DNA from: an uncultured archaeon
GTDB lineage: Archaea; Altiarchaeota; Altiarchaeia; IMC4; QMZM01
NCBI GenBank assembly: GCA_964549685.1
Contig: CAZJVE010000019.1
Coordinates: forward strand, 1 to 15,173
Reading direction: 5' to 3'
DNA: 15,173 bases
Shown: positions 4,983 through 15,173 of the stretch, in pieces
Layout of the letters: each line of letters begins with the position of its first letter
Position numbering within the stretch: position 1 is the stretch's first letter
Translations under genes and position numbers: made by a program
Notes under the pieces: model-generated
What the model was told of the DNA's origin: nothing
The model's database searches: none
The model's input: the letters and a program-made list of their open reading frames with translations, nothing else

Positions 4983-5022
4983 TTTTTATACTTGTAATAC
5001 AAAATAATACATTGTATTACAA
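4983..5022 (+). promoter_or_regulatory. TATA-like box plus 11-bp perfect inverted repeat (probable TA autoregulatory operator)
   Basis: TTTTTATA at 4983-4990, then TTGTAATACAA (4992-5002) - 9 nt - TTGTATTACAA (5012-5022), ending on the A of the start codon. Confidence 0.7.
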
Positions 5023-5309
5023 TGGAAAAAACGATATCGATAAGGCTTGACAGGGGGTTCATAAGGTCGCTGGACAGGATAGGTGCCGACTATACCGGAC
5101 GGTCTTCCTTTATGAGAGAGCTTCTCAACCTCGGCCTTAGGGAGTACCGGATAGAACTCGCAGTTGAAAAATACATCCAGGGAGAGGTAAGCACCTGGAA
5201 GGCGGCTGAGATAGCCAACCTTTCTCTCAGGAGAATGAACCAGCTGCTCAAGGAGAGGGGAGTCGAGATGCACTATTCTGGGCAGTCACTGAAGGAAGAC
5301 CTAGGATGA
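5022..5309 (+). CDS. UPF0175-family antitoxin-like protein with N-terminal ribbon-helix-helix
   Basis: 'KTISIRLD...LDRI...GRSSFMRELL' fits an RHH fold, followed by the UPF0175 signature 'AVEKYIQGEVSTWKAAEIANLS...LLKERGV'. ATGA overlap with a PIN gene. Confidence 0.85.
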   Translation: MEKTISIRLDRGFIRSLDRIGADYTGRSSFMRELLNLGLREYRIELAVEKYIQGEVSTWKAAEIANLSLRRMNQLLKERGVEMHYSGQSLKEDLG

Positions 5310-11800: not shown

Positions 11801-12040
11801 TTATAGATTAAACTCACCGAGGGAACTTTTCATAAACCTAGTTGTCGGTCTGTAACCGCCCTTGGGACCATGCTCGCTCCTTACCAAGTCAAGGCCCTTC
11901 AATATGTCCAGTTCCCTCCTTACGATGGCCATGCTGATTCCTGTTTCACTTTCAATCTCGGCAATCTTTACGCTCCTGCCGAGGTCTTTGTATCTGTTGA
12001 CTACAGTAGCAAGAATCCGTTTCCTTCTGTCTGTGCACAT
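11801..12040 (-). CDS. Stand-alone winged-HTH regulator (HrcA-like/COG2524 N-terminal domain)
   Basis: 'RRKRILATVVNRY...SVKIAEI.....AIVRRELDILKGLDLVRSEHGPKGGYRPT' resembles the N-terminal HTH of archaeal HTH-CBS regulators. The ATG at 12040 is preferred over the GTG at 12061, which lies inside the operator dyad. Confidence 0.7.
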   Translation of the reverse strand: MCTDRRKRILATVVNRYKDLGRSVKIAEIESETGISMAIVRRELDILKGLDLVRSEHGPKGGYRPTTRFMKSSLGEFNL

Positions 12041-12050
12041 ACTGTTATGT

Positions 12051-12087
12051 AATAGTAACACTAATTTATAAATAGTATTACTATTTA
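12051..12087. promoter_or_regulatory. NikR-like dyad GTAACAC-N13-GTATTAC spanning a TATA box; divergent promoter region
   Basis: AATAGTAACAC (12051-12061) and GTATTACTATT (12075-12085) are 10/11 complementary, with a 13-nt spacer containing TTTATAAA. An overlapping perfect 9-bp inverted repeat TAAATAGTA-T-TACTATTTA lies at 12069-12087. Confidence 0.6.
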
Positions 12088-12118
12088 AATACGAAATTCT
12101 AAATAGTAAGAAATAATA

Positions 12119-13093
12119 ATGGAGATGAAAATGATTAACAAGAATATTTTATTGGTTCTGGGATTGGTTTTATTTTCCGGGATTGGAAGTGCGCACTTTA
12201 CCATGGTCTTCCCTGGAGGGGATATGGATGTTACACCTGATGAGTACATAGCAGAGGTCGGTGAGACAAAGAATTTTGTGATTGTATGGGGCCATCCTTT
12301 TGAGCATATTCTCTTTGACATGGCCTCTGTCCCTGAGGTAAGTGTCAGGGACCCTGAAGGGGTCGTTACTGAATTAACGGTAGAGGAAACCAAGGTTGAA
12401 GGTTATAAAGCATATAAGACAAAATTCACGGTTGACAAGGAAGGGGACTGGATAGTTTCTGTCAGATATGAGGATGAAGACGAGCAGTTAATTGATCTGA
12501 CAAAAGCAGTAATCCACTGCGGCGAGGAGGCATGGTTCGGCTGGGATTCTGTGCTAGGTGAGGAGGTCGAAATCTTGCCTTATACAAGGCCCTATGGAAT
12601 CGAGGAGGGCTTTGTTTTTACGGGAAAGGCCATTGCTGATGGAGCCCCTCTTGCAGGAGCGTCAGTAGAAGTTGAGAGATACAACCTGAAGGAAAAAGGA
12701 GAAGCCATCGTGGCGGCAACGGAGGACAGATACCCGAATGACCCGCCGATGATATTCACCCGAGTGACTACCTCGAACGAGAAGGGAGAATTCGCCTACA
12801 CCCTTGACGAGCCGGCGATATGGTTCGTAGGAGCGACGAAGGAGGTCGAGGACGGCTATGATGTCAGGGGGGTCATGATAGTCCCAGTTATTGAGGAATT
12901 TCCCTCTAAGGTTGAGGAAGGAGCAGGTGTTGCTACATCCGCCTTGGAGAACAGGATAAGCTCGCTGGAGAGCAGGATATCAGGACCTTCCTCAACACAG
13001 GCAGCTGGAGGGACTTCAGGAATTGTGTACATCGCACTTTTGGTCGGTATACTTGCAGCAATTCTTGCCTTGGTTGCGATTATGAAGAAATAA
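12119..13093 (+). CDS. DUF4198 / nickel-uptake-associated (NikK-like) extracytoplasmic protein with C-terminal membrane anchor
   Basis: Signal peptide ending 'GSA|HFTMVFP', 'WGHPFEH', 'EILPYTRPYG', 'TSNEKGEF' and a C-terminal TM helix followed by KK. Adjacent to cbiM. Alternative starts at 12125 or 12131. Confidence 0.85.
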   Translation: MEMKMINKNILLVLGLVLFSGIGSAHFTMVFPGGDMDVTPDEYIAEVGETKNFVIVWGHPFEHILFDMASVPEVSVRDPEGVVTELTVEETKVEGYKAYKTKFTVDKEGDWIVSVRYEDEDEQLIDLTKAVIHCGEEAWFGWDSVLGEEVEILPYTRPYGIEEGFVFTGKAIADGAPLAGASVEVERYNLKEKGEAIVAATEDRYPNDPPMIFTRVTTSNEKGEFAYTLDEPAIWFVGATKEVEDGYDVRGVMIVPVIEEFPSKVEEGAGVATSALENRISSLESRISGPSSTQAAGGTSGIVYIALLVGILAAILALVAIMKK

Positions 13094-13101
13094 GAGCTTG
13101 G

Positions 13102-13385
13102 AAGTGTTACTAACAGTTAACAGTTTCCGGTAAGTGTTGGCTGACAACAAACACACCATCCGAACTGTTAACTTAACAACAAACAGGTCCTAGTAAGTGT
13201 TGGTTAACAACAAACATATTGCTGGAACTGTTGCCAACAACAAAGACACCATCCCAGCTGTTAAGTTAACAACAAACACTTAGCTCCATGTGTTCCGAAC
13301 AGTAAACACTTAGGTTTAGCGAACTGTAATTACAGAATTACAGTTGTAAGCCCAAAATTACAGTTGTAATCGCAAAATTACACTT
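13102..13385. repeat. Non-coding array of ten degenerate AA(G/C)TGT-N12..14-ACA(C/G)TT dyads
   Basis: Units start at 13102, 13132, 13163, 13195, 13226, 13256 and 13288 (30-34 bp period, core AACAACAAACA in most), then 13322, 13342 and 13362 (20-bp period, core AATTACAGTTGTAA). No ORF of 60 aa or more on either strand. Confidence 0.9.
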
Positions 13386-13480
13386 CCTTGGCAGAATTCC
13401 ACAGGATTTGAATTCCAACCCTGCATGAATTCACAAGGCAGTGTGTGGAGTTTTATGATATTAAAATACATTTCATTACA

Positions 13481-14092
13481 ATGGTCCACATATCCGACGG
13501 AGTATTGTCGGGGGAGGTGCTGGCTGCAGGCTGGTTAGTGACAGTAGTAGCGTTAGCCCTTACTCTCAGGAGGCTGAGGGCAGAGGAGATACCAAAGCTC
13601 TCGCTAACAACGGCGGCCTTTTTCGTGGCCTCCCTCGTACACGTTCCAATTGGTCCAACATCTGTGCATCTGATAATGAACGGCCTCGTTGGGGTTACTC
13701 TAGGTCCCCTTGTTTTCATTTCTGTCTTCATTGGCCTCGTCCTGCAGGCGTTTCTCTTTGGTCATGGCGGTATAACAGTTATTGGAGTAAATGCGATGAA
13801 CATGGGTCTTTCAGCCCTTGCTGCCTATGCTCTGTTCAGGACGGGCAGGATGGAAAACAAGGTACGGGTGGGCGTGTTGGGCTTCCTTGCAGGTGGCTTG
13901 GCTGTCGCTCTGGCAGTTATTCTTACAGCCCTGGTTCTATTCCTGACAGGTGAGGAATTCACCGTGGTAGCAATAGCCCTATTAATCGCGCATATACCTA
14001 TAATCATAATCGAAGCCATTATTGTAGGCTCGATAGTTGCATTTCTCCTAAGAGTAAAGCCAGAGATGCTGAAGTTGGAGGTGTCGGGATGA
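13481..14092 (+). CDS. cbiM: Co/Ni ECF transporter substrate component CbiM/NikM
   Basis: 'MVHISDGVLS', 'AAFFVASLVHVPIGPTSVHLIMNGLVG', 'LQAFLFGHGGITVIGVNAMNMG' and 'AHIPIIIIEAII'. The true start is the ATG at 13481, not the GTG at 13445. Confidence 0.93.
   Translation: MVHISDGVLSGEVLAAGWLVTVVALALTLRRLRAEEIPKLSLTTAAFFVASLVHVPIGPTSVHLIMNGLVGVTLGPLVFISVFIGLVLQAFLFGHGGITVIGVNAMNMGLSALAAYALFRTGRMENKVRVGVLGFLAGGLAVALAVILTALVLFLTGEEFTVVAIALLIAHIPIIIIEAIIVGSIVAFLLRVKPEMLKLEVSG
14077..14092 (+). other. Shine-Dalgarno and first 4 nt (ATGA) of the next operon gene, i.e. the 5' exon of the group II intron
   Basis: GGAGGTG at 14077-14083 and ATG at 14089 overlapping the cbiM TGA. The intron 5' end GTGCG follows at 14093. 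The identity of the interrupted gene (nikL/cbiQ-like is expected) is not visible. Confidence 0.6.
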
Positions 14093-15173
14093 GTGCGCCG
14101 AGAAGTGTATTAACTCTTGCCAGTGAGAGTCTGGCCTGGGCAAAGGTTAGCCACCAGCCCAGCACCAAATCCCACGCATGGTCTGGTAACGGGCTATGCG
14201 ATGCTGGGAGGCGGGAGGTATCGGGCTGCAACGTAAGTGAATGTATTGAGCCCCGAAATTTCACCATGTTCCGGAGTGGCCGATGCTCTTCATTCGGCAG
14301 CAGGCAATACTCCTGTGACCGACCTGAAAACGGGTCAATAAAGCATCCTAATGTGGATACCTACGCTCAGGATAAAGGGCGAGGTTGCAGGAACCCGGCG
14401 GGGTCTGAGGCAGTGGCAAGATACCAAATGGAGCTAATATGAACTCGGGAGAACCAGAGTGTTTACCTGAGAGTCCCTCAAAAGCTCTCTGGTGTAGGTG
14501 GCAACAAGCCTATGAACGGCAAGGAGCTGCGGAATATGCTCTGGTAGTCGGACTATCCCACAGTATTGATGAAGCCCCGTAATGGGGGTGGAGAGAAGGG
14601 GATAGCAGCAACACGCTAAGATGTGAGGACACATCTACTGCACACGGAGGCAGAAAGAAAGAAAGGATGAAAACAAAATTGCAGCTGATAACTCAGCGGG
14701 CCAAGGAGAATCCGGAGATGAGGTTTACGTCGTTAGCACACCATCTCAACAAGGATTTTCTGAGGGGGTGTTTTGGGGAACTGAAGAGGGGTAAAGCCCC
14801 TGGCATCGATAGGGTAACGGTTGAGGAATATGAAGTTAACTTGGAGGAGAACCTCATGGATTTAGTGAGCCGGATGAAGGCAAAGAGATACAGGCCCCAG
14901 CCTGCCAGGCGGGTCTACATACCGAAAGAAGATAAAGCCCTGAGAGGGCTTGGAATACCAGCGGTTGAAGACAAGATAGTGCAGATGGGAGTCAAGAAAA
15001 TCCTTGAGGCAATCTTTGAGCAAGACTTCGTGGATGTATCCTACGGATTTAGACCCAATCGCAGTTGCCATGATGCGCTGGACGTGGTAGATAAGGCAAT
15101 TATGACTGAGCCAGTCAACTGGGTTGTGGATATGGACATAAAGAGCTATTTTGACACCATAGACCACAAGCAG
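14093..15173 (+). mobile_element. Group II intron (IIB-type RNA, class E-like RT), 3' part outside the window
   Basis: 5' consensus GTGCG at 14093. Domain I motifs GAGCCCCGAAAT and GCCGATGCT...GCAGCAGGCAATAC (EBS1 stem-loop). AGTCGGA...CACAGTA..GATGAAG and the domain III-like CCCCGTAATGGGGGTGGAGAGAAGGG (about 14571-14601). RT ORF from 14667. Confidence 0.92.
14667..15173 (+). CDS. ltrA: Group II intron reverse transcriptase/maturase (N-terminal 169 aa, truncated by the window)
   Basis: My translation: MKTKLQLITQRAKENPEMRFTSLAHHL...KAPGIDRVT...YRPQPARRVYIPKED..LRGLGIPAVEDKIVQ...FEQDF..VSYGFRPNRSCHDAL...WVVDMDIKSYFDTIDH, covering RT0 to RT3. 'RFTSLAHHL' is typical of class E. Absent from the ORF track because it has no stop in the window. 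Confidence 0.96.
   Translation, partial: MKTKLQLITQRAKENPEMRFTSLAHHLNKDFLRGCFGELKRGKAPGIDRVTVEEYEVNLEENLMDLVSRMKAKRYRPQPARRVYIPKEDKALRGLGIPAVEDKIVQMGVKKILEAIFEQDFVDVSYGFRPNRSCHDALDVVDKAIMTEPVNWVVDMDIKSYFDTIDHKQ

Follow-up and report, generated by a model that had tools for sequence, protein, structure and literature searches.

Dyad units arrayed in helical phase between DUF4198 and cbiM of an altiarchaeal nickel/cobalt transporter operon belong to a genus-level family found at core promoters

Among the described systems built on short DNA sites, the closest to the element presented here are the auto-repressed small winged-helix regulators of MarR/TrmB-like type in archaea and bacteria, whose palindromic operators lie over the TATA box or the transcription start, and the iterons and parC sites of plasmids, arrays of repeats in helical phase to which a small dimeric protein binds. 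Other repeats have layouts of their own, such as CRISPR arrays, with repeats of about 23-50 bp and unique spacers of similar length, and miniature inverted-repeat transposable elements (MITE), present as several copies of one element that is 50-500 bp long and shows target duplications and terminal inverted repeats. According to PMC2817692, repetitive extragenic palindromes (REP) usually exceed 100 copies per genome, and neighbours in bacterial interspersed mosaic elements (BIME) alternate in orientation, while PMC545781 gives the box of the nickel repressor NikR as a pair of 7-bp half-sites with 13-14 bases between them (27-28 bp in total) and in either mutual orientation. The element described here is an array of ten dyad units, situated between a DUF4198 gene and cbiM in the nickel/cobalt (Ni/Co) transporter operon of an uncultured archaeon of the phylum Altiarchaeota, and the stretch analysed, hereafter the window, is the whole 15,173-bp contig CAZJVE010000019.1 of a 1.17-Mb, 85%-complete assembly (GCA_964549685.1). 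These dyads are an undescribed, genus-level family, whose usual place is the core promoter of phylum-specific small winged-helix genes. We tentatively read the units, at somewhat less than an even chance, as operator-type protein-binding dyads, with the array amplified in tandem in an inserted spacer upstream of an internal cbiM promoter.

The array begins 8 bases after the DUF4198 stop codon (13091-13093) and comprises two types of units and a degenerate continuation:

13102-13321, plus strand: type-1 array, seven dyad units of 24-26 bp with 6-10 bp linkers and a period of 30-34 bp
13102, 13132, 13163, 13195, 13226, 13256 and 13288: starts of the seven type-1 units
13322-13385, plus strand: type-2 array, three abutting dyad units with a period of 20 bp
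13386-13440, plus strand: degenerate continuation of the 20-bp repeat, three more boxes at steps of about 19 bp, read from the sequence

The ten units are located exactly where the preliminary description had placed them (13102-13385, starting 8 bp past the DUF4198 stop), and the region is non-coding as stated there, with stops in every one of the six frames of 13094-13480. Common to all ten are TGT and ACA with 12-14 bases between them, although unit 5 fits this pattern only via a shifted ACA. The longer outer arms AA(G/C)TGT...ACA(C/G)TT, which had been attributed to all units, are exact in only two of the ten (13102 and 13322), and in five of the ten when one deviation is allowed, so that only the shared triplets and their distance stand for the whole array. 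Type-2 units have the same outer arms as type-1 units and an A+T-rich core with an inverted repeat of its own. Within the 300-bp array window TGT-N12-14-ACA is matched 11 times, as compared to 0.13 expected from the genome; the 1.166-Mb assembly contains 510 matches, its next-richest 300-bp window has three, and shuffling of 13095-13400 by base (5000 times) yielded a mean of 0.27 and a maximum of 4. Tandem Repeats Finder reports a period of 32 at 13144-13279 (4.4 copies, 64% matches) and a period of 20 at 13336-13382 (2.3 copies, 92%). From TGT to TGT the steps across the ten units are 30, 31, 32, 31, 30, 32, 34, 20 and 20, and the steps of 20 and of 30-32 bp are close to two or three whole helical turns, which bears out the helical phasing noticed earlier. 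Linkers between units are unalike, while TGT, ACA and the spacing are kept in ten of ten. Since the junction of units 2-3 and that of units 5-6 are 90% identical over 42 nt (repeat family D1), the array grew by block duplication. The 20-bp repeat extends beyond position 13385, where the preliminary description had ended, with a fourth copy at 13392-13401 (90% identity, repeat family D5) and similar boxes at steps of about 19 bp after 13401, running up to a TATA-like box at 13451-13458.

An assembly artefact, considered earlier as a possible explanation, is refuted by contigs of several sequencing runs. A single contig of run X1 (possible source of this DNA) spans 12600-14100, and the array was assembled identically from other samples and studies, with contigs of X4 covering 13106-13278 and 13324-13587 and those of X6, from another study, covering 13012-13208 and 13241-13678, in both cases with no differences inside the spacer. 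A relative (about 96% identity) is found in the freshwater run X8, in which units 6-7 are unchanged (0 differences over 59 nt, a number that on its own is not significant) between flanking genes that differ by about 2-4%. In this relative, units 6-7 are followed by 16 other letters and then by a second, diverged copy of 13290-13337, and position 13337 is joined directly to 13477, the intervening 139 bases (13338-13476) with the 20-bp repeats and the TATA-like box being gone. The array is thus common to diverged strains and arranged differently among them.

The preliminary description had found no described element that matches the units; they turn out to be members of a dispersed, genus-level family specific to a few Altiarchaeota, and the scan of related genomes proposed there did recover the same units in two of them, the congener G001 and G006. 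When the spacer was compared by BLAST with 49 genomes of the order, matches the size of a unit came up at seven places in G001 and at a single one in G006. The exact type-1 pattern occurs four times in the window, nine times at six G001 loci and once in G006, and the reversed pattern used as a control is matched neither in this genome (G000) nor in G001. With looser matching, 33 units were collected at 14 loci (ten in G001, two in this genome, one in G006 and one on the metagenome contig L094), a set which excludes the type-2 unit at contig 1: 90201, the fifteenth locus. This assembly contains 13 units at three loci and G001 about 20 units at ten loci. The second type-1 locus of this genome consists of two units on contig 1 near 174166, and the type-2 unit on contig 1 (90201-90219) lies right after a TATA-like box, before a region paralogous to that of G001 in which a type-2 unit directly follows a TATA-like box upstream of a MEDS-PAS sensor gene.

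The type-1 scan of 61 representative genomes of the phylum matched eight, and those other than G000, G001 and G006 had only single non-dyad matches; units of the array's form are absent from the other genomes among these 61 by pattern scan. A scan for the arm pattern matched 25 of the 61, with frequencies close to those of the reversed control, G001 (7 versus 1) being the exception. Among 50 metagenome stretches matched by two adjacent type-1 units, three were judged real (L059 and L091, from the G001 population, and L094), and the remaining 47 were A+C-rich repeats with no relation to the units, most of them coding or other tandem repeats; a scan with one genome per species gave three real stretches out of 13 (L098 in G006, L102 and L103 in G001). 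In viral contigs the loose pattern matched at least 119 stretches, and none of the 80 inspected contained two dyads 15-45 bp apart. No second copy of the 306-bp array or of the 387-bp spacer is present in this genome or in the 49 genomes of the order. Other short palindromes were also seen: one perfect 24-bp palindrome that shares its outer arms with the units is present six times in G011, beside other hairpin repeats (loci L130 and L146-L150), and clusters of different G+C-rich hairpins with 9-bp stems lie next to tRNA genes and gene starts at contig 1: 157867-158036, contig 26: 3812-3988 and contig 5: 65859-65945. Short palindromic repeats seem to be common to these genomes in general.

In most G001 copies the units are part of one repeated cassette, which opens with a conserved TATA-like box and continues over 17 bases, one to three units and a short A-rich stretch to an ATG. 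At all 11 promoter-side loci (L018, L023, L020, L021, L118, L119, L024, L025, L022, L094 and contig 1: 90201 of this genome) the units lie in one orientation between the TATA-like box and the ATG. The cassette ATG of G001 opens a protein of 96-101 residues that is coiled-coil-like at its N-terminus and also has a winged helix-turn-helix. Its family (alignments A1 and A2) gives weak MarR, TrmB, IclR and ArsR-type matches and has MarR-type proteins as its nearest solved relatives. All four intact G001 paralogs (L020, L021, L118 and L119) are preceded by two units each between the TATA-like box and the ATG, and the cores of these units differ among paralogs while being identical or one to two letters apart within a locus. 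Elsewhere the cassette has behind it no more than residual pieces of the small gene, 9-22 residues long (L018, L023, L094), runs into other genes (L024, L025) or stands as an orphan with nothing recognisable downstream (L151, and L019 in G006). Several decayed copies of the winged-helix gene are cut to their first 9-22 codons. A repeat of at least 300 bp with a long inverted repeat precedes the G001 promoter cassette at L018 and L023; both genomes have it where contigs end (in this one, contig 11: 56-371 and contig 27: 4091-4277), and its copy in L023 matched no Rfam family. The winged-helix family comprises 28 clusters among 5.8 billion proteins, those with given source names belonging only to Altiarchaeota/Altiarchaeales, and within the 61 phylum genomes it was found only in G001, with four copies, and in G003, with a single truncated one; a profile search of viral contigs gave no relative. 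Several cores of the array are letter-identical at non-orthologous G001 loci (BLAST 96% over 25 nt and 92% over 26 nt), with coding DNA of G001 only 85-91% identical to that of this genome.

Two lines of evidence from the 33 units suggest that they are read as DNA. The outermost A-T pair of the arms is kept in 31 of 33; at the next arm position there are 12 Watson-Crick pairs, 5 G-T pairs and 16 mismatches, and at the S-S position 10 Watson-Crick pairs, 2 G-T pairs and 21 mismatches. Because these two positions mismatch in 16 and 21 of the 33, the arms are to be regarded as conserved letters and not as a maintained stem. The second line comes from the 19 unit-to-unit spacings, which are 20 bp (two), 30-32 bp (14), 34 bp (one) and 40-41 bp (two). 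As they fall into classes of 20, 30-32 and 40-41 bp and the linkers of the two 40-41 bp spacings are unrelated, changes in length proceed in steps of about one helical turn, although most spacings of 30-31 bp are inherited copies, and about four independent events stand behind this argument. Steps of one helical turn matter for proteins bound to DNA, not for RNA. The placement of type-2 units right after a TATA-like box in two genomes, at members of one sensor family, would also favour operator-type sites.

At the operon level, the array occupies a junction that is continuous in two other genera. The features that surround it are:

12055-12081, no strand assigned: NikR-type box with reversed-orientation half-sites 13 bases apart, one of four matches in the genome with at most two mismatches
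12119-13093, plus strand: DUF4198 gene (324 aa; Pfam PF10670, E 3.3e-27), its product ending in a hydrophobic C-terminal anchor
13451-13458, plus strand: TATA-like box about 26 bases 5' of the cbiM ATG, read from the sequence
13481-14092, plus strand: cbiM, substrate-binding membrane component of an energy-coupling factor (ECF)-type Ni/Co transporter (Pfam CbiM, E 3.2e-54)
14126-15173, plus strand: group II intron between cbiM and the rest of the operon, running off the contig

DUF4198 is the upstream gene of the transporter operon, and its orthologues are 87% (G001), 55% (G013) and 56% (G009) identical. CbiM scores 216.6 bits against the NCBIfam CbiM equivalog (cut-off 173), and its start codon is kept in relatives. 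In G009 and G013, which represent two other genera (CbiM 75% and 67% identical), the DUF4198 stop abuts the cbiM ATG with no spacer, and relatives with the two genes adjoining and no array do exist, as had been suggested for examination. The congener G001 (CbiM 95%) has another block of 3.8 kb at the same junction (contig 29, locus L278), without dyads, whose four genes are, by name from open reading frame (ORF) reading, methyltransferase-like followed by the binding protein, permease and ATPase of an ABC transporter. By this comparison of gene order, the 387-bp spacer between DUF4198 and cbiM is a lineage-specific insertion. In archaea the TATA box has a fixed placement relative to the start, and because the box at 13451-13458 fits this rule, it is the putative promoter of a leaderless cbiM transcript. 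There is no oligo-T terminator in the sequence between DUF4198 and cbiM.

Nickel has a likely control point of its own at this locus. DUF4198 and a small winged-helix gene that diverges from it (11801-12031, minus strand) are separated by a TATA-rich stretch, and over this stretch lies the NikR-type box at 12055-12081. The box is conserved in the congener G001, there too upstream of DUF4198, and likely constitutes the nickel control point of the operon. Since this box is present, nickel control is explained without the array. A second of the four NikR-type matches, at contig 23: 731-758, is located directly upstream of nikR; both it and the box at 12055-12081 have reversed half-sites, 13-14 bases apart. 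Elsewhere in the window, a perfect 27-bp palindrome with half-sites of NikR-like type (4994-5020) stands directly 5' of a 95-aa ORF (5022-5309), which precedes a DUF3368 (PIN-like) gene, and this palindrome, instead of being a NikR site, may serve a toxin-antitoxin-like pair as its operator. Downstream of cbiM, intron domains 1-4 were recognized at 14126-14413 (Rfam RF02005, 102 bits), with a reverse-transcriptase ORF from 14667 (RVT_1), and the ORF at 14089-14442 lies inside these domains and is intron RNA, not cbiN. The end of contig 20 carries the 3' end of the intron (locus L281: 2557-3528, minus strand), so that the operon is split over two contigs; past this end, contig 20 contains a 156-aa ORF, a Pfam-matched cbiQ and a 305-aa ORF, the first and last of which are possibly cbiN and cbiO. 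The X8 relative diverges from the window after 14092 and seems to be without the intron.

Under the operator reading, each two-fold symmetric site of 24-26 bp would dock one dimeric DNA-binding protein, which would recognize the conserved TGT and ACA triplets together with the flanking A and T, while the variable core of 12-14 bp may set which paralog binds. The normal site in G001 is the core promoter, from TATA box to start codon, of small regulator genes and a few others, where a bound dimer would block RNA polymerase and hence bring about auto-repression. In the window, ten such sites would have been amplified by tandem duplication within the 387-bp spacer that splits the DUF4198-cbiM junction, and the spacer would also have brought a new, probably leaderless, cbiM promoter. 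Repeats at every three or two helical turns would align the dimers on one face of the DNA and allow cooperative binding, and the resulting nucleoprotein block could hinder read-through from the NikR-controlled upstream promoter, or else tune the internal promoter.

Several observations weigh against this scheme. The array lies 96-380 bases upstream of the predicted cbiM start and not over the promoter. The constant position of units in G001 is partly inherited, as most copies share one duplicated promoter cassette, and because four unit-bearing genes of G001 have orthologues here without units, units come and go in the manner of mobile or neutral DNA. The two units on contig 1 near 174166 stand between convergent genes, 17 bases after a stop codon. 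(They lie at the 3' edge of a segment of about 0.9 kb, L136: 1482-2385, which encodes a 308-aa probable secreted protein and is missing in G001 and G002, where the flanking convergent genes are adjacent.) This genome has a single look-alike of the cassette promoter (contig 11: 342), which is without dyads, and no dyads at any contig end. In this 85%-complete assembly, tblastn with the winged-helix family up to E 10 returned noise only and the profile search only two generic winged helix-turn-helix hits (E 0.002-0.004), and G006 has units and no member of the family. Finally, most type-1 cores contain an inner inverted repeat of 4-6 bp with a variable loop, and with three compensating variants of the fifth pair (by eye), which a pure protein-site model leaves unexplained. 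The earlier proposal of a binding array for a dimeric protein accordingly stands as the best-supported one, with a candidate winged-helix family in G001, but without a cognate gene found in this assembly.

The strongest rival, possible though unlikely, is that the array is an inert or selfish relic, the remains of cassettes or of a short mobile palindrome at an insertion-prone junction, multiplied by slippage or unequal crossing-over and without present function. Units are present or absent at orthologous sites in congeners, at least three cassettes (L018, L023 and L094) have decayed, orphan copies occur (L151, L019), contigs of G001 frequently end close to units, and the DUF4198-cbiM junction itself took up a different insertion in G001 and none in G009 and G013. 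Growth by block duplication speaks for this rival as well, the units of the window fit the consensus worse than those of G001, and the cognate gene was not found in this assembly. In addition, PMC11602168 gives a genome of Candidatus Altiarchaeum as having the top density of MITE-type elements among archaea, which, as far as that source goes, raises the prior for selfish or neutral repeats and counts against an operator function. What such a relic does not readily account for is that TGT, ACA and spacing survive in all ten units while the linkers are unalike, that spacings remain near whole helical turns, and that several cores are letter-identical at unrelated loci of G001 despite the divergence of the coding DNA. 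The unchanged units 6-7 of the X8 relative, not significant alone, point the same way, and no transposase is linked to the array.

Improbable, in turn, is an RNA element, by which the operon transcript would include the array and the units, rich in A+C, poor in G and bearing small hairpins, would act on the RNA in stability, processing, translation or chaperone binding. The orientation relative to the adjacent gene is the same at all 11 promoter-side loci, the array is sense to both neighbours, its sense strand is A+C-rich, and no oligo-T terminator separates DUF4198 from cbiM. With the starts predicted in G001, the 5' leader would also take in the type-1 units, which at most loci stop 6-12 bases short of the ATG, and the inner inverted repeat with its fifth-pair variants as well as a folding energy below that of shuffles (z -3.05 on the plus and -3.41 on the minus strand) would suit an RNA. 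However, the outer arms pair no better than chance, with the 21 mismatches at the S position, the predicted fold joins neighbouring units instead of forming unit hairpins and is about equally stable on both strands, and the cores of L118, of L119 and of the first L151 unit lack the inner repeat. Because type-2 units are placed between the TATA box and the predicted start, by the usual geometry of archaeal promoters, they would be outside the RNA altogether. At gathering thresholds, the whole window gave no Rfam match other than the group II intron; by E-value, positions 12000-14000 yielded nothing beyond sub-threshold, chance-level hits of microRNA type, and scans of L023 and L281 gave no match for the array. 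The multi-hairpin RNA proposed earlier is thus weak, lacking covariation in the outer arms, and the point that no known RNA family matches the array, riboswitches such as cobalamin, leaders and small RNAs included, holds.

Less probable still is that the dyads are recombination sites, accumulated targets or crossover points of a site-specific system that moves strain-specific segments. Two of the three dyad loci of this genome do edge DNA that is missing in congeners (the 387-bp spacer and the contig 1 segment of about 0.9 kb), and the array of the X8 relative is rearranged, with one unit repeated and 139 bases gone. On the other side, the ORFs of the window contain no integrase or recombinase domain, integron attC sites are longer than the 24-26 bp of the units, G001 has its units placed near promoters and not at cassette ends, and the 3.8-kb insertion of G001 entered the same junction without dyads. 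Least of all is it to be expected that the array is a set of NikR operators through which the nickel repressor shuts the transporter off, since, although the left arm of unit 1 equals the half-site published in PMC545781, the other units match five to six of its seven letters, the locus is a Ni/Co transporter and the genome encodes nikR, the units are 5-6 bp shorter than the 27-28 bp box given there and hence half a helical turn off, properly spaced boxes exist at 12055-12081 and upstream of nikR, and units in G001 precede genes unrelated to nickel.

Returning to operator-type sites, a bolder version of that reading, itself improbable, is a self-contained regulatory cassette proliferating in the genus and composed of promoter, paralog-specific dyads and winged-helix gene. 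The array would then have gathered operators belonging to several paralogs and would serve as a decoy for titration or as a multi-input switch that ties the metal-transporter operon to regulators otherwise private to the cassettes. If true, this would be the first natural transcription-factor decoy array described in archaea. The full-text search of the literature found no description of these dyads or of the winged-helix family, and the supplementary MITE lists of PMC11602168 might list related repeats. Altiarchaeota are uncultivated CO2-fixing archaea of the subsurface, and the locus offers a testable pair of dyad sites of 24-26 bp and winged-helix proteins of about 97 residues, so far confined to this phylum, in a layout which suggests paralog-specific operators. 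If the array binds such proteins, tandem amplification of an operator could rewire an essential Ni/Co uptake operon, nickel being needed by enzymes of the hydrogenase and CO dehydrogenase type in such organisms. If it is inert, the array documents fast gain, decay and pile-up of promoter cassettes in small genomes, in an operon that also took up a group II intron and, in the sister genome, a 3.8-kb transporter block.

Compared with the known systems, two candidates are set aside by their layout. CRISPR is rejected, as it was in the preliminary description, with type-1 linkers of only 6-10 bp, abutting type-2 units and cores that vary from unit to unit. A MITE is rejected on the grounds that only unit-sized matches, and no second whole copy, occur in this genome and the 49 of the order. 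REP and BIME sequences share more with the units, which are likewise short, imperfect extragenic palindromes (24-26 bp, within the 20-40 bp of REP/BIME), clustered, dispersed and variable between relatives. Nevertheless, the 13 units here and the about 20 in G001 are far from the copy number usual for REP, the ten units and all pairs and triplets elsewhere are in direct orientation, unlike BIME neighbours, and the GTAG or CGTC end tag described for REP in PMC3733652 is absent. The corresponding REP-associated transposase system (REP/RAYT) is rejected, with PF01797 unmatched here and the Y1 transposases of G001, G002 and G006 being IS200/IS605 genes or fragments with unrelated hairpins.

Plasmid iterons and parC come closer, since they too are phased tandem repeats at whole helical turns with a similar number of sites (ten). 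The units of the array are variable-core dyads in place of identical direct repeats, the family elsewhere has one to three promoter-proximal copies, and Pfam scans found no rep or par gene among the ORFs of the 15-kb window, so that of the centromere or iteron option raised earlier the phasing alone is retained. The auto-repressed MarR/TrmB-like regulators are the nearest counterpart, as dyads in G001 likewise occupy the stretch from the TATA-like box to the regulator's own ATG, usually as two. A dyad over the regulator's own core promoter is seen at four of four intact G001 genes and not in the window, where ten sites stand in a row upstream of the promoter with no regulator gene adjacent, and a cognate regulator is not found in the same 85%-complete assembly. 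The altiarchaeal sites differ further in being long (24-26 bp) with a non-symmetric core, and in the confinement of the winged-helix family to Altiarchaeota. By analogy, the array would work most like auto-regulated operators of MarR type, multiplied as in iteron or centromere arrays.

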